From Schmidtea polychroa (Eukaryota), in contig CM097885.1 in the NCBI GenBank assembly GCA_044892525.1, positions 11,286,001-11,350,000 of the forward strand: 64,000 nt of DNA, in the 5' to 3' direction. Below are positions 21,001-58,292 of this stretch, in pieces. Position 1 is the first letter of the stretch, and the number at the start of each line of letters is the position of its first letter. A program made the position numbers and the translations under genes. The notes under the pieces are model-generated. The model saw only the letters and a program-made list of their open reading frames with translations. It had not been told where the DNA came from and did no database searches.

Positions 21001-22896
21001 TCCCGCCTCCCCCCTGAACAGCCAATTAATAATAGCGCGTTTAGATTGGAGTATAAATACCGGAGCTTGGAGAAGATGAAACGGGCAGGATCGATGGTGA
21101 TGAGTGTGATATTGGAATTGTTAACCAATCCCATCATGCACAATGAGCATGAAATGATGCTCCATTTCCTTCACATTCAGTTGATGGGGAATTGCCTATC
21201 GATTGCCGCTGGATTTGTCGCTCCCTGTGCTGCTGCTGGTGCTCAATGTGCCGCTGATGGTCCTGATGCATTCAATCGCGTCTTTTTCTCACCGGTGATC
21301 GATGAATCTATTGGCGGAAAGAATAGTAAGCAATGAATCCATTTGTGTGCGCGCGCGCGTTCATTTACAGCTGGATCGATAATTGCAGGTTGGAATTGCG
21401 CGCTGAGAAGGATCTCCCAGGCTGTCCGATCGGGCAATAAACCGCCTCTCAGTTTGGCAGTGATTATCCTGTTCAAATTGCAGGAATGCTTTGAAATGGC
21501 CAGCAAGAAACTGTCGGTTTTTGATGTGATGCAAGATTTGCCCGCTGCTGGTGCCGCTGCTGGTGCCGCCGGATTGCTGGATTGCAAAGGCCGCAGGAAG
21601 CTGCTGAGGTCGGCAGGGGAAATTGAGGAGAAACTGATGAGAATGTCAACTGATCAATTGCAGTTGCTGTGGAATTCAGTATTTGATTCAGTTCCTAGGA
21701 TCACTGACGACAGCCCAATTATCGCATTACCGGATCAAGTGAATGATCTCGTGATCGTATACAAGCGCATTACTTGTGTTATTTCATCACTCAAAGGTTT
21801 CCTGATTTATTTATTTGTTTATATTGCTATCGATTATTTATATTTGTCTTTTATTGTTTCATTTTTTGTTTTTGGATTTTTTTATTATTAATTTAAATAT
21901 TTAATTTATTACTTGTTTTATTTTTTTATTGTAATAATATTTTTATTAAAATTATTATTTTTACAATTTTTTCGATTTTTACTATTTATTATTTTTAAAT
22001 TTTATTATTCCATTTTAATTTTTTTTCAAAATTCAGTTTTTATTTTTTTAAGTAATATTATTTTTATTTTATTAATAATTTTATGTTTATTTAAAATAAT
22101 TAAATTTAAAATATATTTATTTTCAATAATTATTTTAAACTTTATTATTCCACTTTTAATTATTTTTATTTAAAATTTTATTCGATTATGTTTTTTTATT
22201 TTTAAAAAATTTTTTTTTTAATTCAGTTTTTATTTATATATTTATTATTAATTTTTTTTTATTATTAATTTTAATATTTTTTTAATATTTAAAATTATTT
22301 TCAAAATTCAGTTTTATTTTTATAAATATTTTTATATATCTTTAATTTTTTTAAATTATTTTAATTTATTAGTTTTAATATAAATTTTAATTAATTTATT
22401 TTGTAATTATTTTAAACTTCATTATTCCAATTTTAATTATTTTTTAAACTATTAATATTTTATTTTATTATAAATGTTATAATTCCATTTCTAGACTCAT
22501 TGGAAAGTTGCTGTTTCTTGATCTGGTATCACGCGCTGGCATACAACAACAACAACAGCTCAACGAGTGCCGATAAAGATAACTATATGATCACAGCTGA
22601 TTCCAGCCTTCATCCAATCCAGCGATTGCATAAAATTCAACAAATTAAAATGGAATTCGATACACCAAAATCAGTCAATCAATCAAATAACGATATAATT
22701 TTCTTAATATCTAAATGTATCGATGATGACCTTCTCTACAAGATCCAATCGGCATTTGAGGTGACATTTGTTGATATGTTTATCAATAATGAATCATTGA
22801 TTACTGTTTTATTTCCAGATTTATTCCGATGAGAATGAGAGCTCATTCTTGAGAATCTTGGTTCACCGACTGATGAGGATTCTTAAACTTGTTTAA
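12051..22896 (+). CDS. NUP205: Nuclear pore complex protein Nup205, multi-exon host gene
   Basis: ISDLFKLNEITSVELLLFG..TRGLLAV..KEIELLESQRALGTARHR and PNLGQYLMGF..GVGDFPKTCLHSLL match metazoan Nup205. GT-AG introns. Last exon ends SFLRILVHRLMRILKLV*. Confidence 0.92.
15060..15270. repeat. Intronic minisatellite, ~20-nt unit with GTCAAGGTCATT core
   Basis: About 8 degenerate tandem copies inside a NUP205 intron. Confidence 0.8.
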
Positions 22897-24092: not shown

Positions 24093-26111
24093 TGTAACTG
24101 TTGGCGTATGTGGGGAGGAAAGAAATTTTAGTACAAGGCATACAATCGTTTTCGTTCCGCTCAGGCCCTTCTCCCAGCATACCCGTATTGATTTTACTAA
24201 TATCCCTCATGTGTGCCCGTGGAGGTATTACACGTTGGTGATGCCCACATGGGTTGGAGTTGGTTAACAGGTGAGCCCCTACCTTAGGGCTACTATTAGC
24301 CCACTCACGGTTCGGGTTCTAAGGTGCCATAGAAGGTCTTACCCATACTCACATTTTAACCGGTTTGACCCTGGTCCGAGGGGACGACCTTCATCTATCG
24401 GCAGATATTCAATTTCATCATTTCATTTATACAAATTATATAGCAATTCATACCAATAACGCTCTTGACACAACAAAAATTATATTCAGGTAAGTAAAAT
24501 ACATTACACAACAGTTAATACACCGAAAAGATACTTAGAAAGCTGAATCAGGTAGTACGCTTCCTGAGAAGGCATCGGAGATTATCGCGATGTTTATTCA
24601 CAATGGAAAAGAATCGAGACAAGTCATTGGAACACTTCTCCCTCAGTAATCATTTCGTCGATGTCGACGGGTAATCGGCGATCTTCGAGGAATTTGATGC
24701 CGTCGGATGAAATTACCCGGAAAATTTCTTTCGATGGGATCGAATGGGTGGATGAGATTTCCTGGATCGTCGACTGTGCCGCGGACAACGAGGCTTCGAG
24801 CGCTTCGAGTGCGATCGTTAAGAGTGCATCCCATCATTTCTATCAGCAACACCGAAATCTCCAACAGTTGCAAAGATGATTAAACTTCAAAAGGAGAATG
24901 ATTCATGTTGAAATCGACATTTATATCTAGTTTTGACTTTGTGAGAATCCACATAGAATGGAAAGACCTTTTCGTGCGTAGCTTGTCTATCAGCATATTT
25001 AGAAGGAGAACTTGTTCGACCATAATTCGCGAGAAATTCCAACATTTTCCGTAATACACCGCATTTCCGAGATTTGTCCAATATTTCGCATCGAAAGGAC
25101 GTTAGCGAATAAACCCCTAATTTCATCTATCTGTAGGGTCCGAGTGGACGTGGAAGTCGAGGTTTGACAGGCCACTATCATTAATAACCCGTCGATCTAG
25201 ATAAAATGTAAACATTCTCCGATAATCAATACAAATACTCACCATAGTCTTGAGGAAAGCTGCTGTCGGCGAGTTTTGAGAGATTATCTTTCGGTTTTGT
25301 TCTGTTAGGAATTGGCTGCAGTCGACAGATAAGAAATTGTTGGGTTATCGAGTTGGTGATAAAATTTAATGTTACTCTGATTCCAAGCGTGTCTTTATAT
25401 AATTCACAAATAACACTTGACAACAGAAATCTTTATTGATAATCACAAATAAACTTTCACTTGACACTGACGATAAATTCAACACTCTACTTGGTGATTA
25501 TACAATGCTTATTACAACACTCGGTGAGGAATAGCACTTGTGTATAACACCGGATTAAAAGATCACAAATTACTGATTGGTTTCAAAACTGGGATTTTGA
25601 GCGGTTGTTTTCCTTGACTTTCTTTCAAACTTTATTCAAATAATCAATAACTTCTTTTCGTTTTGTTATTCAGCCAATCCTCCTCTTCAACTCTTCTCCA
25701 ATAATTATTTTCCACAATTATTTCCTTTACAATTACTTTGACAATCGTTTGTCCAACAAAGTTTCGTCCAACGTTTAATTTTCCTCAATAATTCTATTTC
25801 TCAAATCGTCTCTCAAATTGTATCTAAAATCGTCTTCCAAATCGTCTCTCAAATCGTTTCTCCCTTTGTTCCTTTTGTTTCCCTTTGGTTCTAATTTCAT
25901 GTTCACCAGTTTTCCTTTATATAATTTGCTTCTCTTGTGGCACTCCAGATAATCGAGTGTTTTTCCACTTTCCATCTCCTGCTTTTCCCGACTGTCCCAT
26001 TTTTATCTCTGACAGCTGTCTAGTTGTTTTTCCCTTTTTCCTTTCTTGTTTGGCCGCCTTCTCCCATCAATTCTATTATCACTCGCAAGCTGTCGAGATA
26101 AGGATATTGTT
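24093..26111 (-). repeat. Distal part of a long retrotransposon LTR (left boundary approximate)
   Basis: Continuous across the Polinton TSD with the PPT-adjacent LTR start at 41536. Candidate TG termini at 24093 and 24099. Confidence 0.5.
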
Positions 26112-26650
26112 AGTAGGGTATTGTGTGGACCCGGGAACAAAGACATATGACGTCATCGATGACGTCACAAAGACATATTACGTCATACCCCCCACCCCCC
26201 GGGGGGAGGGGGTATTTTTTTTTTTTTTTAATTTTTTTAAAAAAAAAATTTTTTTTTTAAATTTATATTACGTTGCGGTATTTTAAAATATATATTACGT
26301 TGCGGTATTTTAAAATTTATTATATTTTAATTATTAAATATATTACGTTGCGGTATTTTAAAAACTTATTGATAAAAGTTTAATAAAATAAAATTATTAT
26401 TACACACACACAATATAGTCTACCCGACAAAATATTCTGTTCCCCTATGGTCATACACACACACAATGTATAAAAATATTATTAGTGTCCACACACGCAA
26501 CAAGTTAGTGTTCTCATTGATATATTATTAATCTATATACTCCGAGTCTATCCGACAAAATATTCTGTCCCCCTATGGGTACTGCTCACAAGGGTACTGG
26601 TTACACTCAACAAGTCGCAAGGGTATTAATAAACAATGTAATAAAACATA

Positions 26651-26745
<95 letters not shown>
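26112..26745 (+). repeat. Left terminal inverted repeat of copy 2
   Basis: Reverse complement of 40693-41288. Contains a CRE palindrome, a C/G tract and three ATTACGTTGCGGTATTTTAAAA units (two in the right TIR). Confidence 0.95.
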
Positions 26746-26746
<1 letters not shown>

Positions 26747-26958
26747 ATTTCTATCACAAATCATGGTTAACAAAAAACATAGTCGAATATTATAAAATTA
26801 AGGTATTGTGTTAGCACACACTCGTTATAATAATTAGCAATATAGTTTTTATGGTGTATCAAATCAAAACCTTTCTTTTACATTTATAGTCTATCAACCA
26901 ATCAAAATCATATGGTATTAGTATAAATAAAAACATTATATTTTAAATTATTTTAGAA

Positions 26959-27487
26959 ATGTCGCAACCAAATTTTATGGAAAATGTTCTAAACGGAATT
27001 GTCACCGCGAATATAGTCGACAGCCTCAATTTCCTGATCAATCGAACCGAACAAATCATTGAAGGTGAACATATCGATTATCAGCAGATGATGGAGACGG
27101 AATCCCTGGAAACCAAGAAGTATTACTTCAATAGAATATTTCAGTGTCTTTTCGATGAAGACATGAAATGGACAAGGATAATTGTAGGATTCACCTACAT
27201 GAAGATAATCATTGCAAAAGGTCAACATGATTCAGAACATTATTATCATTGGTCTTTAGAAGTAAGATTTCTTTTATAATCTATATTTTAATAATATTCA
27301 TTTCTAGATAATCAAGTCCAAGTTTACCCCATGGATAGAAGCCAATGGCGGATGGGGTGTATTAAATAAACTGGCCTGCAATTTTAAAGAAACTGATGAA
27401 ATCAAAAGAAAAATGAAAAACTATATAAAACTTACAACTGGAGTTGTTATAATGTATATTTTCTGTAGATATATGAATAAAAATTAA
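26959..27487 (+). CDS. Bcl-2-family protein, 160 aa, spliced (26959-27261 and 27308-27487)
   Basis: BH1-like MKWTRIIVGFTY, BH2 PWIEANGGWG and a C-terminal hydrophobic anchor. A 46-nt GT-AG intron gives an intact frame. Confidence 0.88.
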
Positions 27488-27687
27488 TGTTTTTAATAGT
27501 ATATTTAAATGAAAATAATTCAATTTTAAAATTTATTAACACACTGGGTAAAGGTCATAAAGGTAACTAACAAAACTTTAACATATTATTATTATTATTA
27601 CAATGTATAAAAATTGTTCACAAAGTTACTGTTAAAAATAATCAAGACAATAAAATCAATACATTTATTAAATAATTTAAACACACA

Positions 27688-30600
27688 TCATCGAAAATAA
27701 TCATGTCCAAAATAATTATCATCTGCTGGATCATGGAAATCATCTGTATCATCTGCTGAGATAGCTTCCGTTGAATCTATAAATATATCGGTGTCACCGC
27801 CCCTATAATGGCCATATGCCAAACTTTGATTTTTATCCACCCAATTTCGTTTATCATCTCTACACGTCAAGGCTCTTTTATTATTTTTAATACTAAAAAG
27901 TTGGTGATTTTTTGACGTTATTCTAAACTGAGGGACTGTGTATATTTTATCATTTAAATAACAATCTAGATACGACTGATGTGTTAGTCCAGTATCTTTC
28001 ATACTTATCCCCTTAGCCTTCATACTTTCCTCATCACCCATCAAGCTGTAACATTTAGGTCTCAAGAACACCCAATCTTTATATAATAACCCTTTATTCT
28101 CGTCTTTGAATTTGCCAATGACAGAATCAAGGTTCCTACTATATAAAGGATGATTTGGGTCATAATTCGAAGTATCTAATAATTGATCTCTAATCATCGC
28201 AGGTAAAAGAATGTCAAGACTACAATGTTTAATTTCCAAGAAGAAGGAATCTGTGTCTCCAACAACGATATTAATTTCGCAGTTGAATTCGTCGCGATAT
28301 TTTTGCAACTCTTCATACTGCAGCTGGTACATCCTGAGTTTGGATAAATCAAGTACGGTTTGACCAATGTAACTAGGTCTATTCAAACACACTATGTCCT
28401 TCCTCAATAAAACCGAAATCAAGTCATCATCGATTTTCGTGGATTTACGAAAAGTCGGTTTCGAACAGAATGTTAATAATCTCTGTGAAGAATTACACAG
28501 ACGTAAATTAATACGTTTTTTAAGATTTTCAACAGTCTTGCCGTAAAGACTGTTGTTTAATAATTTATAAAAATTTTTATCGAGTTTATTTGTCGACGCT
28601 GCTCGTAACGCCGTATTTGTGTTAATATAATTTTTGAAAATTTTATCTTGTTTAAATTTAATTGCTCTATGTGTTTTTGATATTTTAACACCTAATTTAA
28701 TAAATATTTGTAGAAGCCTCCAATGAAGAACGTAGTTCCTCTTGGGGCTATGTGTAAGCAACAGCTTCTCTATTTTCGAACCCGGTACACACATCTTTTC
28801 AGCGGCAACGGGAAGATCGTCCAGTTTGTCGTGAATTGACGTCGGTATTTCTAAATCCACTTCTATGGTATAACCATAATCAAGCAGATCTAAATCTACC
28901 GTTGTGCATTCAACAATTAAATTATTTAATAAATTATCATCAGTAACCCATTCAAAGTCACTGCAAGGTAATGGTTGACTTAAAGCCCAACCGTATAAAT
29001 TATTTATATCTATGTAAAGCAAAGCGGTATCCGGGTCTGTTTTTACATAATGTTTATTTACAAAAGTTAGTCCGCCACGGATACCGCCCTCGAAAAAGTT
29101 ATACATCTCCATATCGGTGAGGAGCTCAATTGGAGAGTTTAAAGTTAATAAGGCTGAATTCCAAGACATACCTGGAATCCCTAAGAAATTTAATGGCTCT
29201 AGTCGGTTATGAGCAATGGACTTAGCTCTAAATTGCTGGAAAAAATCGGCTAAAAGGAAAACATCAAGTTTTAAATAAACCATCATGTAATCGAAAAGTG
29301 AAGTACATGAAGTTTCAACCCAAATTCGCTGAGCTGTTTCATATTCAGCAGGAGTCACATCTTTCCAAATAGGTGGTAACTGATGAGTGTTATGTAAAAC
29401 CTCTAATGAAGTTGCGACATCATAAGGAAAAATTCCCTTTGCAGTTATTATTGTACCCTGAAATTCTGATTCGGTCAAGGGTAAAGATGATAAAGTTTTG
29501 ACAGCATTATTTAAAGACTCGCTGACAAATTGATAAGAGTCTATAAATTTAACAGTTAATGAGTCAATCCTAGCAAAAAGACTAAGGAATTTCTCGCTGG
29601 TTAAAGGAATACAACTAATATTCCATGAATGATATTTTGAAAGGCCAAATTTCAAGATATGATGCAGATCATAACCCTTTAAATTATGAAATACTACAGG
29701 AAGGGTATGTCTAATTTGCCTCGACAGATTACAAGTTGTACAAGCGGCACCAAGATATAGACCGGTAAAATGATCATGGTCCCTAACTGGACTAACTAAA
29801 GGCTTATTACACAAATAACATGATGTGCTGTTTTCAAACATTAATTGTTGCTCATCTGTAATTATCATTTTCTTTTGATAATTTTTATAATAATAAGGAG
29901 TTACAATATATTTCCCTATCATTTCAATTTCAGTAAGAAATTGATCGACACAATCTAAACCGGTGAACGACTTATAAATTTTTACGCCTGTGAAATTATT
30001 AATAAAAAGCATACCGGCAGAAATAGGCAGATGACGTTGAAAGTAGCGAGTGTCTTTAGGTAAGATAGCCTCAAAGTCAGCGTAAATAACAAAGGGAGGA
30101 GTAACTGTTTTACTCCAATCAGTAAATTCTAAATATTTATTTTTAGGCAATGTGTACAAGGTAGTACCAAGCTGATTTTTATCGCAAAGACCCTTATGTC
30201 TATTAAAAGCGTCATCATTCCTAAAACCGTTTAAACATCTAGGGCACCACTGACTACAAATCCTAACAGGAGTGATTGAACTATTCCTACAATTAAGAAA
30301 TCTATTTAGGTCTGTGATTCCAAGATAATGATAATTATCATTCTTTTCGATTAATAATAAATTGATAGGTATGGCTCCTACTATCTTACTCCTATATATT
30401 ATATCAATAAATGGATGTTTCATAACTGCATCTTCATCGGAAATGTCAATCAAAGCCTTTTCGTTATAAGTAAGAACATTAATACTATAACCCGGATTTT
30501 GTTGTTCAAATTTACTTATATTTGATAGTTTCATCGGCATATCATTAGGATCAAATTTAATTTCAGAAAGATTGTAGGAATTAGGGCGATTTCTATATTG

Positions 30601-31490
30601 CCTATTTATACAGTCATATTTAATAATTGACAAGAAACTATACAAAAAGCAGAAGTGGTCATTATTAACTACATTAATGAGACAGCTTAAGTTTCTTAAA
30701 GATTTTGGGGTTTCAATAAAACTTCTACCACTTAATCGACTTATTTCAGCAAATTTAGTAAGAACAAAGCTTATGTATTCTATTTTATTGATAGTCCAAT
30801 TACTACCTTTCTCATTAATTCTAATTATTTTTTCATTTAAACGAGCAATACCTTCGTCAATGAATGTATCGCTCCAAACTCGGGCGGAATTCGAGATTAC
30901 AAAAGATTGTAACTCATCATCTTTTATAAATTCCACCTTTAGACAAAATTGAATTTTACATGATTTTAATTTATTTACATATAAATTTAATTTATTTATT
31001 AAAATTTCTGGTACAGAGACCGTTTTTAAATCTAAAGACGAAACGTCCATTTTTAATATAATATGATTATTATTTAAATCACTGGTGACATCTACGACAC
31101 CATAACCTATTTGATTAGTATTATTAATACGATTATTATAATAAATATTACTACTACTATTATTATTATTATTATTATTATCAATTTCCTCATCACTTAT
31201 GTTGATTATTTCATCATCATCACTTATTGTGATTACATCAATAACTTTAGATTTTTTACTTGGTATTGAATTTATTTTTTCATTATTTTTTCTTTTATTC
31301 ATATTAATTAGATTATTTATTTGTTCATTTAATTTATTTACTTGATCTTTTAGATTATTTATTTCGTTTATATCATTATTATTATTATTGGTGCTGTTAG
31401 TATTATTGTTGGTGATATTATTATTATTATTATTGTTGATATTATTATTATTATTATTGTTGTTGATATTATTATTATTGTTGTTGTTGA

Positions 31491-31536
<46 letters not shown>

Positions 31537-32321
31537 GTTAACAAACGATTCATATAAGCTATAGAAAAGAGACTTCTTAGAAGGTTTAAATTGTTGGAGA
31601 TGGAGTCTATGCTTATTATAAAATTCCTTATACGTTATAACTTCAATAACCTCACATTTAGGGCATAGGATGTAGGTGACACCGTTATATTTATGACTAT
31701 AATATCTTTCCATTATATCATCGCAGTCATTATGATATTGACTATTACAAAAGTTTTGGTATTTCAAACCTATGAAAATATTTTTATCATAAAATGTTTA
31801 AAAAATATTAAGATAATAATCATTTTTAAAGTTTAAGATATTTTTCGTAAGATATTATTCAAAATTATCTTTTAAATAGTATCTTATAAAAAATATTATT
31901 CAAAATTATCTTTTAAATAGTATCTTATAAAAAATATTATAAAATATATATAATTTAATTCGTTTTCATAAATAATTTAATTCATTTTCATAAATAATAT
32001 ATAAAAGTTATTAATTATAATGTTCAAAATCATCATAAATAAATAGGTAAATCTTCTTTTCATGAATAAATCTTCTTTTCAAAATCATCATAAATAAATA
32101 AGTAAATCTTCTTTTCATAAATTATCATAAATAAATAGGTAAATCTTCTTTTCATGAATAAATCTTCTTTTCAAAATCAACATAAATAAATAAGTAAATC
32201 TTCTTTTCATGAATAAATCTTCTTTTCATAAATCTTCCTTTCAAAATCATCATAAATAAATCTTCTTTTAAAATATCTTCTTTTCATGAAAAAATCTTCT
32301 TTTCATAAGTTTCTTCTTTTA

Positions 32322-32363
<42 letters not shown>

Positions 32364-32690
32364 ATATTTTAAAAAACTTAAAAACTTATAACAATAAATA
32401 AATACTTACATTTTCGTCCTTTCGAAAGAAATTTTCCAGCATCAGCAGCAGCAGAAGTATTTATTACATTTCCATCTAAAAGCATAATAAAAATAATAAT
32501 GATAATAAGAGTAAACTATTACCATTTATTCTATTCATGTCTACAGCTTGTCCGTCGATATTCATTTTAATTTGTTGATTAGTACCTAATAATCATATTA
32601 AAAATAATAAAATAATAAAATAATAAATTTACCATTAATTCCTCCAACGATCTTTCCGTCAACTCTTTGAATATTGTTGTTGTTGTTCAT
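27688..32690 (-). CDS. Protein-primed DNA polymerase B (exons 32690-32633, 32585-32523, 32475-32410, 31769-27688)
   Basis: Exonuclease YADFEA and FHNLKGYDLH; polymerase YIDINNLYG, KLLNNSLYGK and GDTDSF. Three phase-1 introns connect an upstream ATG in frame. Confidence 0.93.
31850..32320. repeat. Tandem AAATCTTCTTTTCA-type repeats in pPolB intron 3
   Basis: Many degenerate copies between 31850 and 32320. Confidence 0.8.
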
Positions 32691-33032
32691 GTTGCTAATA
32701 GATTTTTAAAAGTGATGAAAAAATGAAAGTGTAGACTATATAAGAGAGATATTACAGGTTTTATTAACCGACCAATGAAAATAGAGATAGGATAGGAAAA
32801 GACCCTACATGTTTGTTTATACAAACCATGACGAAATAATGACCTTTACATGTCTTTATTACTCAGTGCTTTGTTACTTTGCACTGTGCATGCACTGAAC
32901 ATGTAATAGTATTACATAATATTTTTAAACATAAAATTTTAAACATAAAATAATAAAATAATAAAATAATAAAACAAATAATAATATTTAACAAATAATT
33001 AAAATAGTCAACAAATAAAAATCATACATTTA

Positions 33033-33444
33033 TTAACCATCAAATTTTTTATACAACAACCATGCCAAACAGTGTTGACCACATGTTTGAGTCAATGGAT
33101 TTTGAAACATAGTTTTATTATATACAATAGGTTTCCCAATTGTTTGAAGTTTTGATATCAACAAAGCAGGATAATAGAAACCCATAGGATCGAATACGAA
33201 TATATTACCAGGTTTCACATATATAGCTATCCAATGTTCTCCACCAAGATGAGACGAATGAGTATTGATGATTATGGCTTGATTATTGCTCAAATAAGGA
33301 ATTTTATCAAGAGGAAAAACTCCTACAAATTCATTTCCTAATATTTGTTTTCCAATTCGATTAACCTGAACAGAACTACTTTAATAAAATTAAACAGTAT
33401 CAAAAAACTTACTCCATGACAACTTTTTGTGTTTCTGTATACAT
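33033..33444 (-). CDS. Adenain-like maturation protease, spliced (33444-33413 and 33378-33033)
   Basis: His, Asp, Gln and Cys catalytic motifs. The 34-nt intron is required for an open frame. Confidence 0.9.
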
Positions 33445-34668
33445 TTATACTAGCACGGTTCTATTTGCAGTAATTTGAACTTCATTTTCAAATACTCCAT
33501 ATATTATAACATGTACCGGTTCAGTAATAGCTTTTGCAAACTTAATATCCAGTCGTAAATTCCCGTTTTGTGGTAGTTGACTCTGATTTAAATCAAAATC
33601 AGGGGCTAAAACAAATGTAAAAAATGGATATTTGCTTTTAAATTCTTCTAGAGTTATTCCACAATTCAAGTTTTTATCTAAGTAACCCAGATTTCTAACA
33701 ATACTCTGCATATATGTCGCACAGTAATTATCGCTTTCGAAATCTTGAGTATATGTTTCTCTATAATCAGTATTTTTCGACAAAGTCAAAGAAGTAACAC
33801 CAAAATTTTTGAAAATTGAGCTGGAAGCAGTATAAGATCCATTATATTGCGTTTCATTTTGAAATGTTACCAGAATAAAATTAGGCATTCTTCTGTCACC
33901 AAATATTTGTTCTTTATAGAATGATGAAGCACCTTTAGCAATAGCAAATTGTACAATTTCCTTTGTTTTTAAAGGATAAATTGCATGTTTTGAATTAAGA
34001 CCCAATTGATGACCAGCTAATACTGACGGGTCTACTCGAACTCTTCTCACCAATAATTTTGCATCAACTAATTGGCATATTGGTGCACCAGTTGCACTAG
34101 TAAGAGATAATGCAGAATCAGACCTTTTCAATCTAATGTGTACATTAACTCCTGGTAGCAAATATTTCGGTTGATCCATAAAATCGAGTTGTAATGATGA
34201 GCACATAGTGAATGATTTTGAGCCTTTAACCCACTTTTTTCTTTCATCATCTGTTGCTGCATAACCCATAGGTGTAAGACAGGTATTTTTAGTATCAGAA
34301 TTGTAATTTAAAATAGTTTCTATCAAAGCCTTGTGAATGAATGTATTATTTCCGCCCTCAATCTTAATATTATTAAATCCCAAGACTGCATCTTTAAACA
34401 GAGTATGAAACATGAAATTGTTCGGTATTACATCTGCATTGGCATCCAAAACTTTTCTATCTTTATCTACAACCTTGATCTGAACAGTCAATAAAGTATC
34501 ATTCAAATCTAAATATTCAGTTTGCGAACCATTAATATAAAACTCGATATCATTTCTACTATCAGTAATTGAATTCATAGGAAAAACTTCCTCAAAGGCC
34601 CCAAATTCGATTACAGCTTGAGGCGATGGTCTATCAAATATACATAATTCAGATTTACCACAAATCAT
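33445..34668 (-). CDS. Major capsid protein (double jelly-roll, PY)
   Basis: KSEL.IF..P..Q..IE......P.......IEF.I.G....YLDL.DT.L.V is the Polinton MCP N-terminus. Intact 407 aa. Confidence 0.92.
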   Translation of the reverse strand: MICGKSELCIFDRPSPQAVIEFGAFEEVFPMNSITDSRNDIEFYINGSQTEYLDLNDTLLTVQIKVVDKDRKVLDANADVIPNNFMFHTLFKDAVLGFNNIKIEGGNNTFIHKALIETILNYNSDTKNTCLTPMGYAATDDERKKWVKGSKSFTMCSSLQLDFMDQPKYLLPGVNVHIRLKRSDSALSLTSATGAPICQLVDAKLLVRRVRVDPSVLAGHQLGLNSKHAIYPLKTKEIVQFAIAKGASSFYKEQIFGDRRMPNFILVTFQNETQYNGSYTASSSIFKNFGVTSLTLSKNTDYRETYTQDFESDNYCATYMQSIVRNLGYLDKNLNCGITLEEFKSKYPFFTFVLAPDFDLNQSQLPQNGNLRLDIKFAKAITEPVHVIIYGVFENEVQITANRTVLV

Positions 34669-35027
34669 TTTGCAAATATAGTTCCATGTCCTTTCATTCG
34701 TTTGTTTATACGCGATATTCCATGTCCTTTACGTTTTGGAGCTGGGGCTGGGGGCGTATCTTTTTGAAACATACCAGCAACTCCAGGTAGAACCTTCCCT
34801 AACTCAGCTAAAGCATTTGTTTTTATGGATGGTAATATTTTCTGTTCATTCATAATAACATCTTTTGCAGTTTTCATGCCAAAACTACCAATACGTTTAA
34901 GAATAGGAAGTGCAAATCTCCCTATTGTTTTTAACCAACCTGATCCGTACTGTTTACCAATAAAATATGGTAATTCACCGCCAGATTGGCTATCACTATA
35001 CATACTAATAATATCGGAATTAGCCAT
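34665..35027 (-). CDS. Putative core / membrane-active protein
   Basis: QSGG, QYGSG and MKGHG motifs plus an amphipathic helix. Confidence 0.72.
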   Translation of the reverse strand: MANSDIISMYSDSQSGGELPYFIGKQYGSGWLKTIGRFALPILKRIGSFGMKTAKDVIMNEQKILPSIKTNALAELGKVLPGVAGMFQKDTPPAPAPKRKGHGISRINKRMKGHGTIFAK

Positions 35028-36087
35028 CTACTTTACGAAAATGTAGTGTCAAATGAGTTTTTGAGTCTTTTGGAAAGTTTATAAGTTTTCCACTATCGTC
35101 ACGAATATTTATTTCTATATTGTTTATACATGAACTTGCTATTGGTAAATACATGGGATTATCTATATTTATATTGACAACTTCATCATGTTCATATTTT
35201 CCAATCCATACCGATTTCAAAAGAGGAACACTGGAATCACCAACAATTATAGGCTCAATAATATTAGTATATATGAACATTTGTTGATGATGTTCAAGTA
35301 TTCTTGGTTTACGTATACCAGCCGATTTTTCCCGATATTGCTGCTTCTCTAATCCAAGTGTATTTGTCAAATTTTTATCAAATGTAACTTCGCAAATATC
35401 ATCATTCAAACTGAAGGTAAACATCAAATCTTTCACAATGTCCAAACTTTTAAATATGTGTGAACAATTGTACTTTAAATATTTAAGTAACACATCAAGT
35501 TTATCAATATATAATTCGTCAGCAAAGGTGAATGATTCTTCAACTTCATTATTATACGACACTGATATTTTGATTTCTTCTCTCATTACACTGTTTGCTT
35601 CAAATAGATTAAAGCGTAATAAATATTCTGTTTCCATAACTTCATTTTTCAACTTATTGCAACCCAATCGTTTGGCATCTTCAATATATTCGAATGTTAT
35701 TGTAAATGGTTTAAAATCACAACTGATATTTAATCCATCCTTGTAAAACATAGAGCAGTGCTGATCTAATAGTTGATTTGGAATATGATATGTTTTATCA
35801 TAATTACTGATAATAAAGATACCGCTACATGTTTTCATAGCATTCCTTTTGAAATCAATCTTACATTGACTATAAAATGGGAATGTATTGTACACGAATG
35901 TAAAATCTTGCAGTGCAACTTCCCAGTCCCCATTTAAAGAAATCGGATTCTGGAGATTGACCATGAATTTACTGGCTTGATTATCTGGATGAATAAGCGG
36001 GCAACTATTGCTTGGTAAAATAGTATAAAAATTCACTTTACTAGATCCTTTTCTGATATCCATGATGGGTTTTGATAACCATGCCAT
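35020..36087 (-). CDS. Minor capsid protein (penton, PX)
   Basis: FYTILPSNS and GDWEVAL motifs; intact ORF. Confidence 0.88.
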   Translation of the reverse strand: MAWLSKPIMDIRKGSSKVNFYTILPSNSCPLIHPDNQASKFMVNLQNPISLNGDWEVALQDFTFVYNTFPFYSQCKIDFKRNAMKTCSGIFIISNYDKTYHIPNQLLDQHCSMFYKDGLNISCDFKPFTITFEYIEDAKRLGCNKLKNEVMETEYLLRFNLFEANSVMREEIKISVSYNNEVEESFTFADELYIDKLDVLLKYLKYNCSHIFKSLDIVKDLMFTFSLNDDICEVTFDKNLTNTLGLEKQQYREKSAGIRKPRILEHHQQMFIYTNIIEPIIVGDSSVPLLKSVWIGKYEHDEVVNINIDNPMYLPIASSCINNIEINIRDDSGKLINFPKDSKTHLTLHFRKVDG

Positions 36088-36662
36088 TTGACATAGAATT
36101 GTTTATCCTTGCCGACCTTTTTAGTTTTCAATATCTTTTGAATTCTAAATACTTTTGGGGGAGGAATAACTTGTAATTCTTGCTCATAAAACTTTCCTTG
36201 TACAATATTGTTATCATAATCACTGATGACATACATTACAGGATTCTGACTAGTATTTATTTTTGAAATTACAAAGACTTCATCACTCCAATTTGTATCG
36301 AAATTTTTAATAAATGGTGATGCACTAATTTTACTAATTCTAACATGGTCACCGACTTTATATTTAGGTTTTGCAATTTTTACAGATTTCTTAGAATAGA
36401 TTGTTTTTGATGTAATATCAACCGGTCTCAATCCATTAAGTCCTCGATGTGATGAATGATTATAACTTGTTATTATTTTCGGTAAAGCATTTACCCATTT
36501 TTTATTACCTTGATGCACGAACAATTTCTTTAATCTATCTCTCAATGTTCGATTAAATCTTTCAACATGGGCAGCTTTGTATTGAGAATGTACCGAGTAG
36601 TGATTTATTTTCAGTTTATCGAGGATTTGCTTGACTTTACTGTTGTAGAATTCTTTACCTAA

Positions 36663-36739
<77 letters not shown>

Positions 36740-37127
36740 CTAAATCTGTTTGCAAGTTATTAGGATGTCCATCTTTAAATAAATCATTAACAGCTTTAGA
36801 CATTTCATCTGCAGATTTTGCCTTGACGGGTATTGCTCGGGCAAACCGACTGAATACATCAATACATGTTAAAATATATTTATACCCATTGTTAATTTTC
36901 GAATAAGGTATCATCTCCATCAAATCCATTTGCCATAAATCATTTATTCCATATGTTTTATATACTCTTGTTGGGAATCGTTTCTGCATTGGTTTGTTCA
37001 AACTGTACGCAAGCTGGTCTGATAACAACTTCTGGGTTTCCTTTTTCGAATTCGGAACTCTTTTGTTTAATTTTGCCACTCCACCGAAACCGGCTTCGTC
37101 TTCTGGGTTCGTCCAAATCTTCTCCAT
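36033..37127 (-). CDS. Retroviral-like integrase with chromodomain (intron 36659-36739)
   Basis: DDE residues in LWQMDL, QTDLG|KEF and VERFNRTL. C-terminal FYVKWHGY..SWI chromodomain. Confidence 0.93.
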
Positions 37128-37185
37128 TACAACAAGAAGATTTAATATTAAATTTAATGTCTGGTAATGAAGGATTAGCACCCAT
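36958..37185 (-). CDS. Small MGxxxS ORF overlapping the integrase
   Basis: 75 aa, conserved across both subfamilies. Confidence 0.5.
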   Translation of the reverse strand: MGANPSLPDIKFNIKSSCCNGEDLDEPRRRSRFRWSGKIKQKSSEFEKGNPEVVIRPACVQFEQTNAETIPNKSI

Positions 37186-37188
37186 TGT

Positions 37189-37683
37189 TTATGATCGACT
37201 TCCTATTATTCCACCTAATAATGATATTGCTAAAGGTATCAATGCACCGATAAATCCCCCTTGTTGTTTATATATAATTTTTCTCATTTGTTGACGATTT
37301 TTATTATTTACTAATGATAGCAAAGGTTTCCTATGTTTACTCAATAATTGCTTTTTAGATTTACTGATTTTAATCTTACCTTTGACTACTTTAAGTATAA
37401 TATCGAGTAAATCATCGACAACATAATTTGGAAAAGATTGCAAAATACTGTTTCTTTTCATACTGGGTGCTTTTAACAATGTATTGAAAAACGGGAAACT
37501 CCGATGATTTTTAACAACTTTTACTTTCTTAGTGGTTTTACTTTTAGTTTTAGGTTTAGGATTTTTCGAAATGAGATTCATTGCAGGAAAATTTTCTGTA
37601 ATAAGTTCTTTAGATGGAGTATAACTAGTTGTTGGTGGAACTTTTGGTTGTTTTTTACTCGATATCCTTGTTTTTGAAAACAT
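37189..37683 (-). CDS. Basic virion core protein with QQGG|F site
   Basis: Homologous to 4735-5259. Confidence 0.72.
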   Translation of the reverse strand: MFSKTRISSKKQPKVPPTTSYTPSKELITENFPAMNLISKNPKPKTKSKTTKKVKVVKNHRSFPFFNTLLKAPSMKRNSILQSFPNYVVDDLLDIILKVVKGKIKISKSKKQLLSKHRKPLLSLVNNKNRQQMRKIIYKQQGGFIGALIPLAISLLGGIIGSRS

Positions 37684-37696
37684 GATTTATGTGTTT

Positions 37697-38335
37697 TCAA
37701 ATTTGTTTTAAACTTTGTTTATATACCATGGCGCCTTTTGGGTTGAAAATATCTGTTTTTACCCGTATATCATCAGGACATTGTTGTGTGAAATCGAGAA
37801 ATATATACCCATGAGGTATTTTCGTAGCATCTTGAAATGCACTGATAAGAAAATTACGGTTATTAGGGTATGCTTGTCGTCCAAGAAAATCGATGACAGT
37901 TGCATCTCTAGGATTCTTGAAAATAACTAGATATTGTACATTTAAATTACGTGTTCGATGTGCACCACCTTGATGAAATAGATTTTGTGTTATGAAAATA
38001 ACTGTTACACCAACATGTCTGCTGATTTTTGTGAATAAATTATTAAAATCCTTTTCTTTATTGGCTTCTTGATACAAATCATCGATAATGATGACATCAT
38101 CTTTTTTCAAACGACTTGACCAGTTTTTATCAAAACCCTTTACTATTTTCATGTTTTTCAATTGACAGAAACTTGATTGAGTCAATCCATGTTCTTCATC
38201 GGCGCCCCTATGCCAATAAATATTGTTGAATTTTGTTTTGAACAAATTAGATTTTAGTAATTTACAAACAAATAATGTTTTTCCACTACCACTCGGACCA
38301 ACGATTTGGTATACTGCATCATTTCGTAATTCCAT
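37697..38335 (-). CDS. Packaging ATPase
   Basis: Walker A and B motifs; intact 212 aa. Confidence 0.93.
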   Translation of the reverse strand: MELRNDAVYQIVGPSGSGKTLFVCKLLKSNLFKTKFNNIYWHRGADEEHGLTQSSFCQLKNMKIVKGFDKNWSSRLKKDDVIIIDDLYQEANKEKDFNNLFTKISRHVGVTVIFITQNLFHQGGAHRTRNLNVQYLVIFKNPRDATVIDFLGRQAYPNNRNFLISAFQDATKIPHGYIFLDFTQQCPDDIRVKTDIFNPKGAMVYKQSLKQI

Positions 38336-38439
38336 TTTTTAAATTTAAACTATATAATTATTGTTTATATTGATAATTTAAATGAACTCCTTTTTAAAAT
38401 AACTATATATAACAGAGTTTTTATAATTATTTCATTAAA

Positions 38440-38904
38440 ATGCTTTCAAATATAAATTACAGGGCAAAAGCTGATGTATCGAAAATGGTATTTCCAATGG
38501 GGAAACCACAACAACTTATCAATAGAAGTAAAAAATATCCAATAATATATTTCAAAACTGGTAAATGTAGAATTATGGGGTGTAAGGAAATAATCAAAGC
38601 TAGTGAATATAATGTTTATGATTTAGAAATACAATCGATAACCGTAACTTCCGATATAGATTTTTCTTGTAATTTAAATAATTTCGCTAAATTAATACCA
38701 TGCTTTTACGAACCAGAATTATTTCCAGCTTTGAGATATATAAAATATAACCCTATGTGTGTAAATATATTCGCTAGCGGTAAGATAGTAATTCTTGGAA
38801 TAAAAAATATTGATTACAAATGTATAGTTGATAATATCATATCTGAAATTAAATCAATAATTGAAGGAAAAGAATTTTTAGATTTTTTATTATCACTTAA
38901 TTAA
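38440..38904 (+). CDS. TATA-binding protein-like protein
   Basis: IIYFKTGKCRIMGCK, IQSITVTSD, YEPELFPAL and VNIFASGKIVILGIK. Confidence 0.86.
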   Translation: MLSNINYRAKADVSKMVFPMGKPQQLINRSKKYPIIYFKTGKCRIMGCKEIIKASEYNVYDLEIQSITVTSDIDFSCNLNNFAKLIPCFYEPELFPALRYIKYNPMCVNIFASGKIVILGIKNIDYKCIVDNIISEIKSIIEGKEFLDFLLSLN

Positions 38905-39025
38905 TTATTTATCATTTCAAATTCAATGCAATTAAAATGCATGATTCTGATTGGTCAAAATCTAATTGGCTGATGATTATTTATAACAAAATGTTTTCGG
39001 TTTAGTTATCATTTATTCAACAAAA

Positions 39026-39437
39026 ATGTACAACATACAAAGTTCCGCAATCACCTCAATGAAAGAGCATGCAAATTATGGTAATTTCAAATTTTTATTG
39101 TTACATTAATATATATATATTTTTTACAGATGAATATCAATCAATTATCCTGCAAAGATTATGCTTCTATTATCCAGAATTAAATGAAATTCTACAAGAT
39201 AGAGATCCATCTATCATTCCGGATTTGGTATACAACCAAACTCGAATCTGGATATTCGATATAATAAACACCTTTCTATGGGATATCAAGATAGGAAGGG
39301 GGATGAAAGAAATGAAAGCAGAGGCTCCTTGCATTTTCGGATGTAGCTGTTGCAATTTCCGTTATCAACAATATATTGAATGGTGTTTGGTGAAGACTCT
39401 GAGAAATCATCACTCGAGTCAGATTGTATCAAAATAA
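39026..39437 (+). CDS. Accessory protein with CxxGCxCC motif (intron 39081-39129)
   Basis: The spliced frame is open and the intron position is shared by all three copies. Confidence 0.68.
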
Positions 39438-39594
39438 ATTTTTTTTTTTTTTTTTTTTTTATGTTGAATTGTTTTGTTTTTGTAAATCGAAATAATAGAA
39501 ATAGAAATAATAATAATAGAAATAATATAAGTAATAATAGAAATATTAGAAATAATAATAATAAAAAACAATATTTATAATAAAAACATTAATG

Positions 39595-39700
39595 CAACAT
39601 TAATGCAAATGACATGCAATTTAAACAAAGACATGTAATTTAAACAAAGACATACATCAATCTGATTGGTTGATAAACAATAGTCATAGGTATAAAAACC
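39595..39700 (+). promoter_or_regulatory. Promoter module: octamer ATGCAAAT, AACAAAG, CCAAT box, TATAAAA
   Basis: Motifs lie upstream of the ATG at 39732. The octamer block recurs at 40213 and in copies 1 and 3. Confidence 0.6.
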
Positions 39701-39731
39701 CTGTACCATTTCATTTTAATCATTATTTACG

Positions 39732-40151
39732 ATGACAAAGAAAATTTCAAGCACTGAAAAGCCAAAAGTTGTTCCAGAACTTGTACAACCTGTTCAAATG
39801 TTCCACAACTATAAAATGTATTTTTTAAAAGAAGAAATCAATATAAAATTGGTGTCACCGATCAAGCTAATTCCAACTAAATTTCAATTCTTATCCGGCA
39901 CGCTTTCAATGTTAGATGTTAAATCTATTGATGAGGTTTTCAAACGGTTGAATACGAATCTATCTTGTAATCAACATGCCTGGTTCAACAACAGATATGC
40001 AAGATTTTATGATTCATTTGATGAAATCGGTTTCAAAGAAAACGAAAATTGGTATATAACAATTGCAATCCAAGGATATAAAGTTGATAATAATGATGTG
40101 TATTCTCCAATTTGGAAAATTATGTCTGCTAGACTTTCACAACTATTTTAA
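39732..40151 (+). CDS. Accessory protein, possible OB-fold ssDNA-binding protein
   Basis: Conserved 136-139 aa ORF with an aromatic, beta-rich C-terminus (WYITIAIQGYKV..YSPIWKI). Confidence 0.6.
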   Translation: MTKKISSTEKPKVVPELVQPVQMFHNYKMYFLKEEINIKLVSPIKLIPTKFQFLSGTLSMLDVKSIDEVFKRLNTNLSCNQHAWFNNRYARFYDSFDEIGFKENENWYITIAIQGYKVDNNDVYSPIWKIMSARLSQLF

Positions 40152-40284
40152 TGTTATATTTAATAAATGTATTAGTCATATTTGTTTTTTCTCTTTATTA
40201 ATTGCAACATTAATGCAAATGACATGCAAATTTAACAAAGAAAATCTATAAACAAACTTATAATATAGTTTTAAAGTGTTATTA

Positions 40285-40619
40285 ATGACTACAGAAAAAG
40301 GTTAACATGATTAATTAAATACCGAATTATTTATTATTTAGAATTATTAATCAACTTTTTGTTGGAAAAGTTAGCAGAAATAGCTGGTGTAAAAATTGAG
40401 GATATATTATCTATTACAAATGCCTTAAATATCGGCTGGGTAGCTGAGAGTCAAGATTCAGGATTTGACAATCATGAAGAAACTCAAGAAATTGATGACG
40501 AAATCTATGAACCTATAGAGGAACCTAAAGATAATATTACGAATGATTGTATTGATCATGTCGTTGAAAATATAATGAAATGTGGAGATGACGATTGCGA
40601 ATGTGTTAATAAATTTTAA
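40285..40619 (+). CDS. Small acidic accessory protein (intron 40301-40341)
   Basis: Spliced MTTEKE|LLINFLL frame; DSGF motif, acidic tract and CGDDDCEC tail. Confidence 0.65.
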
Positions 40620-40691
40620 AATTGAATTATTTTCATTTAAATATACTATTAAAAACAATAACATTAATTTTTATTCATATATCTACAGAAA

Positions 40692-40692
<1 letters not shown>

Positions 40693-40755
<63 letters not shown>

Positions 40756-41288
40756 TATGTTTTATTACATTGTTTATTAATACCCTTGCGAGTTGTTGAG
40801 CGTGACCAGTACCCTTGTGAGCAGTACCCATAGGGGGACAGAATATTTTGTCGGATAGACTCGGAGTATATAGATTAATAATATATCAATGAGAACACTA
40901 ACTTGTTGCGTGTGTGGACACTAATAATATTTTTATACATTGTGTGTGTATGACCATAGGGGAACAGAATATTTTGTCGGGTAGACTATATTGTGTGTGT
41001 GTAATAATAAATTTATTTTATTAAACTTTTATCAATAAGTTTTTAAAATACCGCAACGTAATATATATTTTAAAATACCGCAACGTAATATAAATTAAAA
41101 AAAAAATTTTTTTTTAAAAAAATTTAAAAAAAAAAAAAATTTTAAAAAAAAATTTTAAAAAAAAATTTAAAAAAAAAAAAAAAAAACCCCCCCTCCCCCC
41201 GGGGGTGGGGGGTATGACGTAATATGTCTTTGTGACGTCATCGATGACGTCATATGTCTTTGTTCCCGGGTCCACACAATACCCTACT
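40693..41288 (-). repeat. Right terminal inverted repeat of copy 2
   Basis: Reverse complement of 26112-26745. Confidence 0.95.
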
Positions 41289-41550
41289 ATTGTTGTTTTC
41301 CTTTTTTCCCTGATTTCAAAATTCTTTTTTCTTTTTTGTACTAATTAATTAGTACTGATCTTCATTTTTATTTTCCTGTTTGATAACTTTTATTTCCTTT
41401 CTCTTTCTCATTTTTGATTTCTTTTCACTTCCGTTTTCTTTTCTGAGTCCCTATAGATCGTCCCGTTTGTCATGGCGATCTTCCCCAGGTAATTTTATTT
41501 ATTTCTTTATGAATTATTATTTAGGTATCCTCAACATATCTCCCCCTTTA
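41289..41550 (-). repeat. Start of a 3' LTR (TG at 41536) with its polypurine tract
   Basis: The minus strand reads TTCGAGGACGAAAT..AAAGGGGGAGA-TA-TGTTGAGG, a typical Gypsy PPT/LTR junction. Confidence 0.7.
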
Positions 41551-43793: not shown

Positions 43794-44493
43794 TTAATAA
43801 TAATGATCATACTGATAATAATAACAGTAGTAGTAATAAAGGTAGCAAAAATTCTATAATAATACAATAATTACAATGATTCTAATGATGATGATAATAA
43901 TAATAATTAATCAATAATGAAAATAATAATAATTAATTGAAATAATAACTATGTAATAATGCCTCTTCCATAATTACAATGATTTTAATGATGATGATAA
44001 TAATAATTAATCAATAATGACAATAATAATAATTAATTGAAATAATAATTATGTAATAATGCCTCTTCCTCTCTATATAGGGTTTATTATTTATGTCGTT
44101 CTTTTCCAAATTACCTAGCACGCTGGTTACGCCATGCTGCAGGCGGCGAGGTAATTTTGCCATGAAGTCTTCAGATCCCGAAGTTCGTGATCTGGGAACT
44201 TCAAGGCCTTTTTATTACTTCCGAATTACATATATTTATTTATTCATTTTTATTTATTTGAGTAGCTCCCGTAGGATTCTTACTACAACTGTATTAGTAT
44301 TGAAAAAAAAATTTTTTTTTTACATTATACAATATTATATTATTAAATTTTCAACTTATAATTATGATTTAATTAATTTTTTTGTTGCCTTTGCTATTTT
44401 ATTATTTTATTATTTATTTGATAAAAGATTTTTAGGGTACAAAAAAAATAAAGTAATTACGAATAATAAATTTTATTTATTTATTACAATTAT

Positions 44494-44859
44494 TCATCTT
44501 TTGTCGAGTAACTTTGTAATTTTTATCTTTTCATCTTCTCTTTGATAAGTGGCTAAGATTTTTGAGCTTCCATTCTTCTCCGTTGATGATAATTGTATTT
44601 CCCACGAATTTTCCGTAGTTACCGTTTGGGTTTCCATATCTTTGAGTCTTCGTTTTGCCATTCTCTTTATACGAAGCTCAATTTTCCCCGCCATTTTTAA
44701 TTCCTCTTCCATTGTTATCGTTACTTTATATCTCTTGATGGTTTTCATTGATTCGATGGAATGAAGATTTATTTCCATCTCTTGGATTTCCACAGCTTTT
44801 TCCTTTTGTGGTTTTTCCGGGATTTTGAGTTTACTATATTCCCTTTTTTGATTCATCAT
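44494..44859 (-). CDS. Unknown 121-aa ORF at the 3' end of the retroelement
   Basis: Its start overlaps the exonuclease stop (TAATG); same K/E-rich composition. Confidence 0.45.
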   Translation of the reverse strand: MMNQKREYSKLKIPEKPQKEKAVEIQEMEINLHSIESMKTIKRYKVTITMEEELKMAGKIELRIKRMAKRRLKDMETQTVTTENSWEIQLSSTEKNGSSKILATYQREDEKIKITKLLDKR

Positions 44860-46016: not shown

Positions 46017-46184
46017 CAGTAGTACAATCGTTTAACCAATCAAATTACAGGAATGATAATTTAATTTTAGATCACGAATAATCACAATACAAGATCACTA
46101 TTAGTCATTTTTATGTAATTATAAAAGGTATGAAAGAAAGAAATACTCTACGATATTAATAGCATGCAACGAAATCATATCTTA

Positions 46185-47360: not shown

Positions 47361-47439
47361 ATATCCCAATGGCGTAGGGTTTTTTTGAAATTTTTGTTGA
47401 ATAATTTTTTCATCATTAAGTTTTTTTTGTTTTGATCGT

Positions 47440-50242: not shown

Positions 50243-50269
50243 TTTCGTTTTTGGTCTTAATGCTATTTC

Positions 50270-53762: not shown

Positions 53763-53790
53763 CTCATTTTTAACAATAATCTCTCCAGTT

Positions 53791-55216: not shown

Positions 55217-55351
55217 GAGTATTAATCTATATACTCCGAGTTTATCCGACAAAATATTTTGTCCCCCTATGGGTAATGCTCAAAAGGGTACTGCTCACGC
55301 TCAACAACTCACAAGGGTATTATTAAACAAATCAACAAAACATACATTTAT

Positions 55352-55848: not shown

Positions 55849-55953
55849 GGTGTATCAAATCAAAACCTTTCTTTTACATTTATAGTCTATCAACCAATCA
55901 AAATCATACGGTATTAGTATAAATAAAACATCATATTTTAAATTATTGTAGAA

Positions 55954-58218: not shown

Positions 58219-58292
58219 TTTGTTGAATAAATGAATCCTAAACAAAAAACCGTTTGTTTAAATCAATCAATAACCAATTAGAAATTAACCAA

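Follow-up and report, generated by a model that had tools for sequence, protein, structure and literature searches.

The closest described relatives of the element reported here, a Polinton/Maverick located in a 64,000-nt window of the Schmidtea polychroa genome (contig CM097885.1, positions 11,286,001 to 11,350,000; 'the window' below), are the group 2 Polintons, or Beta adintoviruses (PMC8502044; 10.64898/2026.06.19.733378; PMC10748475). According to the accessible parts of these sources, they share with the focal family the inverted ends, a 6-bp duplication, a protein-primed DNA polymerase B (pPolB), an RVE integrase, an ATPase, an adenain-type protease and putative capsids, and the focal family is placed in group 2 by resemblance. 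Features that set it apart from Beta adintoviruses are introns of spliceosomal type, a polymerase leader that is predicted to be spliced, and a Bcl-2 cassette differing between the two arms. Bcl2 and IAP homologs and the label SSDBP have been noted in some adintoviruses (PMC8502044, accessible parts; a preprint agrees).

In the accessible portion of PMC8502044, the sole label for a TATA-binding protein (TBP) occurs in a figure legend dealing with related elements from data sets other than animal ones, and that portion makes no mention of a late-promoter box. Nor is TBP mentioned in the portions available to us of 10.1101/2024.03.25.586562, PMC11161782, PMC11131425, PMC10748475 and 10.64898/2026.06.19.733378. 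The combination of a Polinton TBP with a late box was not found in the polinton, maverick, adintovirus or planarian literature, where Repbase reports, figures, supplements and subscription papers may hold such descriptions. Some polintoviruses carry VLTF3, a viral late transcription factor gene (PMC11131425, in part), whose product belongs to a different protein family from the TBP-like protein described below. Viral TBP mimics are known from beta- and gamma-herpesviruses, in which ORF24/BcRF1/UL87 serves late transcription from TATT promoters, six viral proteins are required, and ORF24 binds the tail of RNA polymerase II (Pol II) by means of an extra domain (PMC7498053, in part). In planarians, according to the accessible literature, Polintons have expanded and are controlled by PIWI-interacting RNAs (PMC8532177 and a Dugesia preprint), and they are reported to be de-repressed upon PIWI knockdown (PMC8532177).

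We found that the S. polychroa element and its relatives encode a miniature TBP-like protein and that a common box, ATAAAC, stands before most of their virion, packaging and integrase genes. A proposed self-encoded late-transcription switch is well supported by this association.

An ATAAAC box before late-type genes

In the focal copy, ATAAAC was located 19–100 nt before six of the seven late-type genes and 37 nt before the gene of an acidic protein (Table 1), 'late' being assigned by gene type and not by timing. The Bcl-2-like, Cys-rich and SSB-like genes and the polymerase leader were preceded by CCAAT boxes, mostly together with an ordinary TATA box. Among metagenome relatives, the box was present in 63 of the 73 de-duplicated 110-nt windows before late genes, after removal of windows at least 75% alike and of genes with less than 110 nt upstream. 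Broken down by gene, it preceded the ATPase in 22/22 cases, the capsid in 8/8, PX in 5/5, the minor capsid in 8/9, the protease in 4/5, the integrase in 11/16 and pW in 5/8. Background counts were 16/235 for internal windows, 0/73 for the reverse strand and 5/51 for the windows before the TBP-like gene, the last of which, set against 63/73, marks a non-canonical box specific to late genes. ATAAAC was also the top 6-mer in an unbiased ranking of all 6-mers, with the consensus YATAAACR, and its commonest spacing was 30–45 nt before the ATG.

The resemblance of ATAAAC to AATAAA and its frequent position close to where the upstream gene ends would suit a 3'-end signal of that gene, or a by-product of the protein sequence, better than a promoter. 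We consider this very improbable, since the box precedes every ATPase gene behind a non-coding spacer, with no same-strand gene upstream in the focal copy, the preceding base is T or C rather than A in 58 of 62 cases, and the box falls in different reading frames.

The box was found to track the TBP-like gene. Three more families in the genome carry both the gene and the box, and contig L169, which encodes a TBP-like protein, had ATAAAC at 3/3 late genes. In five ATPase-bearing control contigs without a TBP-like match, the box was present at 1 of 16 labelled late starts, and in seven copies of another Polinton-like family of the genome, also without such a match, at ~1/32 long-frame starts, by a hand count that excluded integrase frames cut by stretch ends; an eighth region held no such element. 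Contigs L169–L175 are Polinton-like contigs that were binned into bacterial metagenome-assembled genomes in GTDB and are probably eukaryote-derived contamination. A second large Polinton-like family in the genome (L176–L191) has a jelly-roll capsid match (PF21738), an A32 ATPase, a PLA2-like domain in the integrase frame, with at least 150 PLA2 matches, and no TBP-like match.

A reduced TBP fold with an invariant DNA face

[quoted passage not shown] Foldseek matched the model to TBP structures with E values of 4e-9 to 1e-6, a probability of 1.0 and template modelling (TM) scores of 0.6–0.7. The two-repeat saddle of TBP is therefore present in the model, with a first lobe that is reduced and without its long helices. 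As in cellular TBP (PF00352), the protein folds as a two-repeat saddle and its second repeat aligns by sequence; unlike in cellular TBP, the first repeat has neither both long helices nor the acidic stirrup, a proline occupies the first phenylalanine position, and the DNA face bears invariant Asn, Arg and Met residues.

We found 99 TBP-like relatives and aligned 73, in all of which N6, P23, F38, R44, M46, E91, E93, F95, C107, N109 and F111 were invariant. These include the acidic stirrup pair of the second repeat (E91/E93) and, of the four positions of intercalating phenylalanines, three with phenylalanine (F38, F95, F111) and the fourth with proline (P23). By TBP numbering, P23 would stand in place of one intercalating phenylalanine, and N6 and R44 presumably replace valines in that half of the saddle which contacts the box at its 3' end. 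The ratio of nonsynonymous to synonymous substitution rates (dN/dS) of the gene was 0.22–0.28 between subfamilies.

A metagenome scan confirmed 122 TBP-like loci, of which 80 were kept and, together with one viral locus, gave a set of 81. A Polinton core gene lay beside the TBP-like match in 38 of these 81, many of the loci without one being short contigs, and an SSB-like neighbour in 21. Matches to the Cys-rich, acidic and Bcl-2 proteins were not found beside the 81 loci, and no other gene was common to all TBP-bearing loci. Scans of IMG/VR returned one giant-virus-like TBP locus and no related capsid or ATPase. Within the genome, 6/6 further Polinton regions sampled by polymerase contained the TBP-like gene, and a PF03175 search aimed at TBP-less Polintons returned TBP-bearing ones. 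Since the gene is present in all six regions and in many metagenome Polintons, it is, judged from sequence, a widespread clade trait. The initial annotation of this locus had called its accessory set unusual, which fits poorly with this distribution and with the Bcl2 and SSDBP labels already present on the adintovirus maps accessible to us (PMC8502044).

The host TFIIB gene is split by introns. Two clusters in the genome (C3 38.2–39.1 Mb and C1 23.8–24.2 Mb) hold at least 13 TFIIB-like frames of 301–310 aa, which are similar, diverged and free of introns; around two of these (L126:4572-5486 and L127:4682-5596), neither 10-kb stretch had Polinton-sized frames.

Evidence for and against a proposed self-encoded late switch

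We think it reasonably probable that the opposite-strand block serves the life cycle of the element itself, with the TBP-like protein reading ATAAAC, recruiting host TFIIB and Pol II and thereby effecting an early-to-late switch. Host machinery would first transcribe the early genes (polymerase leader, Bcl-2-like, Cys-rich and SSB-like) from their CCAAT and TATA promoters. The TBP-like protein, predicted to keep the saddle, three of the four intercalating phenylalanines and the second-repeat acidic stirrup but with invariant polar changes on its DNA face and no first-lobe helices, would then bind YATAAAC and switch on the virion, packaging and integrase genes. Its stirrup is predicted to bring host TFIIB and Pol II to the ATAAAC promoters, in the manner of the herpesvirus TBP mimics, and the SSB-like protein would coat displaced strands during protein-primed replication.

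What this arrangement would have in common with the herpesvirus late system is a virus-encoded protein of TBP fold, a TATA-like but non-canonical box ahead of structural genes, and the reliance on host Pol II that we propose (PMC7498053, accessible parts). The focal protein differs from ORF24 in being a bare 154-aa core that keeps a TFIIB-type stirrup. Counterparts of the six-protein complex and of the Pol II tail-binding domain were not found, the protein consisting of the core only and the TBP-bearing loci having no other gene in common. The likeness is an analogy, not membership.

Several observations weigh against such a switch. No ATAAAC precedes the focal protease gene, and promoters of both types are found at the SSB-like gene. 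On contig L174, which carries a distant TBP-like gene (185 aa, E 3e-14), the box stands before only one of five labelled late genes. ATAAAC lies partly within the coding sequence of the upstream gene. The control contigs are few and, being partial, may still belong to elements with the gene; two of them come from one bin, and the control within the genome is a single family; the loci were chosen by their TBP-like gene and are related, so that P values overstate their independence. The mapping of the first-repeat residues draws on assumed TBP numbering and on an internal alignment that is weak (probability 0.9%). We also compared four sequencing runs, three guessed to be RNA and one of unknown type, all as contigs, with 2.8 kb of a sister copy: contigs spanned its TBP-like gene, some with poly-T loose ends. 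Here a contig of a guessed-RNA run, which may be DNA, ran unspliced through the predicted Cys-rich intron, and no splice joint was recorded for that intron, the sole predicted one within the 2.8 kb.

The form of the box is a further such point and leads to another reading, in which a host factor (host TBP or one of its paralogs, or a Forkhead protein) recognizes ATAAAC and the TBP-like gene serves a different function. TATAAAC is a TATA variant, and ATAAACA fits the Forkhead consensus; contig L174 likewise shows that gene and box can uncouple. However, the early genes of the element itself have ordinary TATA boxes, the box is mostly missing from elements with no TBP-like match, and the strict strand bias together with the spacing argues for a core promoter rather than an enhancer site. 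A host reader is thus an unlikely explanation in our assessment.

The initial annotation had instead proposed host control, grouping the opposite-strand block and the Bcl-2-like gene as possible regulators of transcription and apoptosis. Under such a scheme, the TBP-like protein would target transcription in the host, for instance by acting as a decoy that sequesters TFIIB, and the Bcl-2-like protein would keep the cell alive. An invariant acidic stirrup is what a decoy would need, the Bcl-2-like frame is conserved (dN/dS 0.10–0.34), and Bcl2 and IAP homologs have been described in adintoviruses (PMC8502044, in part). Nevertheless, the DNA face of the TBP-like protein is also invariant and a matching box tracks its gene; KWTR replaces the BH1 motif NWGR in 6/6 aligned Bcl-2-like copies; and the Bcl-2-like gene, not found beside the 81 related loci, was located at neither end in five of eight copies that had been selected through the TBP-like gene and had two readable arms (left end only in two, right end only in one). 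The Bcl-2-like gene is dispensable in cis for insertion, and an anti-apoptotic action of its predicted product is possible. The TBP-like evidence points to the late genes of the element and the SSB-like evidence to replication, and the acidic gene is itself behind a late box. The host-control reading is therefore weak, and we judge it improbable compared with a switch serving the element itself.

Integration, copy number and exchange between arms

The initial annotation of an apparently intact Polinton with terminal inverted repeats and target-site duplications was borne out. Both ends of the element (26112 and 41288) start with AGTAG and are flanked by an identical 6-mer, ATTGTT (26106-26111 and 41289-41294). 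The element combines these inverted repeats and the 6-bp duplication with pPolB, a retroviral-type integrase, a packaging ATPase and an adenain protease. The outer inverted repeat of ~600 nt (26112-26714 against 40691-41288) is 89–90% identical with microsatellite length differences, and an inner piece of ~90 nt (27455-27543 against 40602-40696) also matches; because of this inner match, the full left repeat reaches 27543 and includes the Bcl-2-like gene. The placement of a Bcl-2 gene in the terminal repeats thus held for the left arm but not for the right, which is without most of the gene. Palindromic TGACGTCA repeats were found near the terminus (window 26140-26190).

Twenty sister copies were fetched, and in all 14 whose termini were both detected by pattern, matching 6-bp duplications were present, every one different, showing integration at many sites. 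All copies observed were integrated ones. The genome contains at least 150 TBP-like matches of at least 95% identity, at least 150 more of a second subfamily, at least 150 Bcl-2 exon matches and at least 111 polymerase matches of at least 98% identity; the candidate counts of the genome searches (4132, 2388 and 14071) were rejected as copy numbers. The closest sister copies are 98–99.5% identical across 7.2 kb, and many sister copies have stops or frameshifts, several being free of them. The family is large and young, was amplified recently and has young sister copies in the hundreds; the focal copy is thus an ordinary member of it.

Among ten ordinary copies picked by Bcl-2, four had the Bcl-2-like gene at both ends. 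An identical short-arm junction was found on right arms and on left arms, from which it follows that the arms exchange sequence; the optional Bcl-2-like cassette would have moved between ends via such exchange between the two repeat arms. In three of ten Bcl-2-picked copies, one arm was doubled in inverted form at the other end (L022/L023, L028/L029 and L030/L031), with matching duplications in two. The many inverted polymerase pairs in the genome suggest fold-back derivatives.

Table 1. Features of the element, in window coordinates
Feature	Position	Strand	Details
Polinton/Maverick element	26112..41288		~15.2 kb
Left target-site duplication	26106..26111	.	ATTGTT
Left terminal inverted repeat, full form	26112..27543	.	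Bcl-2-like gene inside
Bcl-2-like gene	26959..27481	+	exons 26959-27261, 27308-27481; predicted 46-nt intron 27262-27307
Protein-primed DNA polymerase B, main exon	27688..31769	-	ATG frame 27688-31713; predicted acceptor 31769
Polymerase 5' leader	32410..32690	-	three predicted mini-exons 32690-32633, 32585-32523, 32475-32410
Adenain-type protease	33033..33444	-	PF00770 E 5e-6; predicted 34-nt intron 33412-33379
Putative major capsid protein	33445..34668	-	ATAAAC 41 nt upstream (34709)
Presumed PX / GasderminX-like small virion protein	34665..35027	-	ATAAAC 100 nt upstream (35127)
Putative minor capsid (penton)	35020..36087	-	ATAAAC 19 nt upstream (36106)
Retroviral-type integrase with chromodomain	36033..37127	-	ATAAAC 65 nt upstream (37192)
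Predicted in-frame AAT-repeat intron of integrase	36739-36659	-	
Presumed pW-like basic core protein	37189..37683	-	ATAAAC 39 nt upstream (37722)
A32/FtsK-type packaging ATPase	37697..38335	-	PF04665 E 2e-7; ATAAAC 33 nt upstream (38368)
TBP-like protein, 154 aa	38440..38904	+	head-to-head with ATPase; PF00352 E 2e-14
Cys-rich protein, no known family	39026..39437	+	predicted intron 39081-39129; two ATTGG boxes upstream
SSB-like OB-fold protein, 139 aa	39732..40151	+	model pLDDT 92
Acidic protein	40285..40619	+	predicted intron 40301-40341; ATAAAC 37 nt upstream (40248)
Right terminal inverted repeat, short form	40602..41288	.	without most of Bcl-2-like gene
Right target-site duplication	41289..41294	.	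ATTGTT

Core genes and predicted introns

The core frames of the focal copy are open and keep their catalytic motifs, as had been annotated for the replication, integration and virion genes (pPolB, protease, putative capsids, PX, integrase, pW and ATPase), the introns being predicted. The main polymerase exon comprises a zinc-finger-like start, Asn tracts, an endonuclease VII-like insert and the exonuclease and polymerase motifs. In Pfam, the focal polymerase had no PF03175 match, relatives 58–63% identical to it exceeding the cut-off, and no OTU match. Its endonuclease VII/HNH-like insert, which Pfam supports, occupies residues 620-663 (window 29700-29860). The HNH domain has been described, in the accessible part of PMC10748475, as a trait limited to nematode and oomycete group 2 polymerases, and the insert found here may widen that range.

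The phases of the leader mini-exons sum to 0 modulo 3 in 17/17 copies with all anchors found, with varying intron lengths. The mini-exons hence keep the polymerase frame, and this places the polymerase, by prediction, behind a CCAAT and TATA-type promoter. The frames at 32410-32690 were rejected as a separate small gene because their phases fit the polymerase. A variable tandem-repeat tract lies within the long predicted polymerase intron (window 31850-32310).

The protease and ATPase matches (PF00770 and PF04665) were both above the Pfam cut-off. The integrase has D, D and E motifs, a PF00665 match just under the cut-off (E 2e-7) and a PF00385 chromodomain. Double and single jelly-roll capsid proteins are a Polinton/Maverick trait; the putative capsid proteins had no Pfam capsid match in the focal copy and keep their position across relatives, and the putative major capsid is 28–78% identical to genes at the same position in related elements. 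We take the major and minor capsid labels from position, conservation and similarity; the penton label of the minor capsid and the PX / GasderminX-like and pW-like labels are presumed. Related families contain two tandem minor-capsid-like genes, each behind ATAAAC (L154:6626-8714 and L048:5652-7684).

The introns of the focal element are predicted. In the fetched loci, where overlapping stretches count some copies twice, GT..AG ends were kept in 24/24 matches for Bcl-2, 24/26 for the integrase, 31/31 for the protease and 23/23 for the Cys-rich gene. Predicted intron lengths vary and are mostly not multiples of 3, except for that of the integrase, whose two halves abut in intron-less relatives. 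The poly-Ile stretch in this frame was rejected as integrase sequence, being absent from relatives.

Accessory genes and module exchange

In agreement with the initial annotation, the opposite strand carries the frames of the TBP-like, Cys-rich, SSB-like and acidic proteins, and the TBP, Bcl-2 and SSB labels agreed with Pfam and predicted folds, the Bcl-2-like match being below the Pfam cut-off (PF00452, E 8e-4). The second exon of the Bcl-2-like gene encodes a BH2-like motif and a hydrophobic tail, and CCAAT and TATA boxes lie upstream of the gene. All accessory frames are under purifying selection (dN/dS 0.10–0.34).

The SSB-like protein, for which 41 relatives were found, had no sequence match in PDB, Pfam or Atlas, and an OB fold is present in its model. 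Its best PDB structure match was phage Enc34 SSB (probability 0.87, E 0.14), with African swine fever virus (ASFV) CP312R matched weakly; PDB matches were weak throughout (E 0.14–0.6), and giant-virus proteins matched with E values down to 4e-6. The OB-like fold that the model shares with phage Enc34, ASFV CP312R and giant-virus SSB proteins points to a replication factor.

The Cys-rich protein had no match in Pfam, in Atlas or in a protein search with a 3-row alignment, which covered lengths 55–177 only. Within the genome, both this protein and the acidic one show conservation (dN/dS 0.20–0.27), and their genes were the sole accessory genes without relatives outside the genome in the searches made.

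Comparison of the subfamilies gave identities of 84–97% for the virion, integrase, ATPase and SSB-like genes and of 51–74%, with near-saturated synonymous sites, for the polymerase, TBP-like, Cys-rich and Bcl-2-like genes. As the terminal sequences also differ between subfamilies, this unevenness indicates that modules have been exchanged.

Genomic setting

The host assembly comprises 781 Mb with four very large contigs. The focal copy has as neighbors a Nup192/205-type host gene, with nucleoporin exons at window 12400-21900 (+), and a decayed long terminal repeat (LTR) retroelement with reverse transcriptase (RT) and RNase H at window 44000-54600 (-). In this LTR element, a 658-aa frame upstream of RT matches a Monjiviricetes-type viral fusion glycoprotein (PF24664, E 3e-71), and an exonuclease-like frame lies downstream of RT. 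The window also holds two partial, more diverged copies of the second subfamily (368-9511 and 55220-61096), the first of which is missing nearly the whole polymerase and carries Bcl-2-like sequence at each of its ends. Elsewhere, locus L162 is a tandem array of ~1.3-kb units, each with a frame of 291–300 aa of unknown kind.

Implications for Polinton biology

On an even balance of probability, a broad clade of animal Polintons would run an autonomous early-to-late programme through a single miniature TBP that has been adapted to read a promoter code of its own, YATAAAC, and is stripped of host-regulator surfaces; this would be the smallest known viral late-transcription system, with an evolutionary origin independent of herpesviruses, and would hint at a true virion stage. 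The finding bears on how animal Polintons time their capsid genes and whether particles form. A self-encoded TBP with a matching box makes for a small, direct test involving one protein and one 7-nt motif, and start sites could be marked by the ATAAAC sequence in RNA data that already exist. A record of how the ends are copied is kept in the inverted-arm copies and the movable Bcl-2 cassette. If the proposed switch is true, these elements would provide a second and far simpler instance in which a viral TBP directs host Pol II, as well as a natural variant showing how TBP specificity can be changed.

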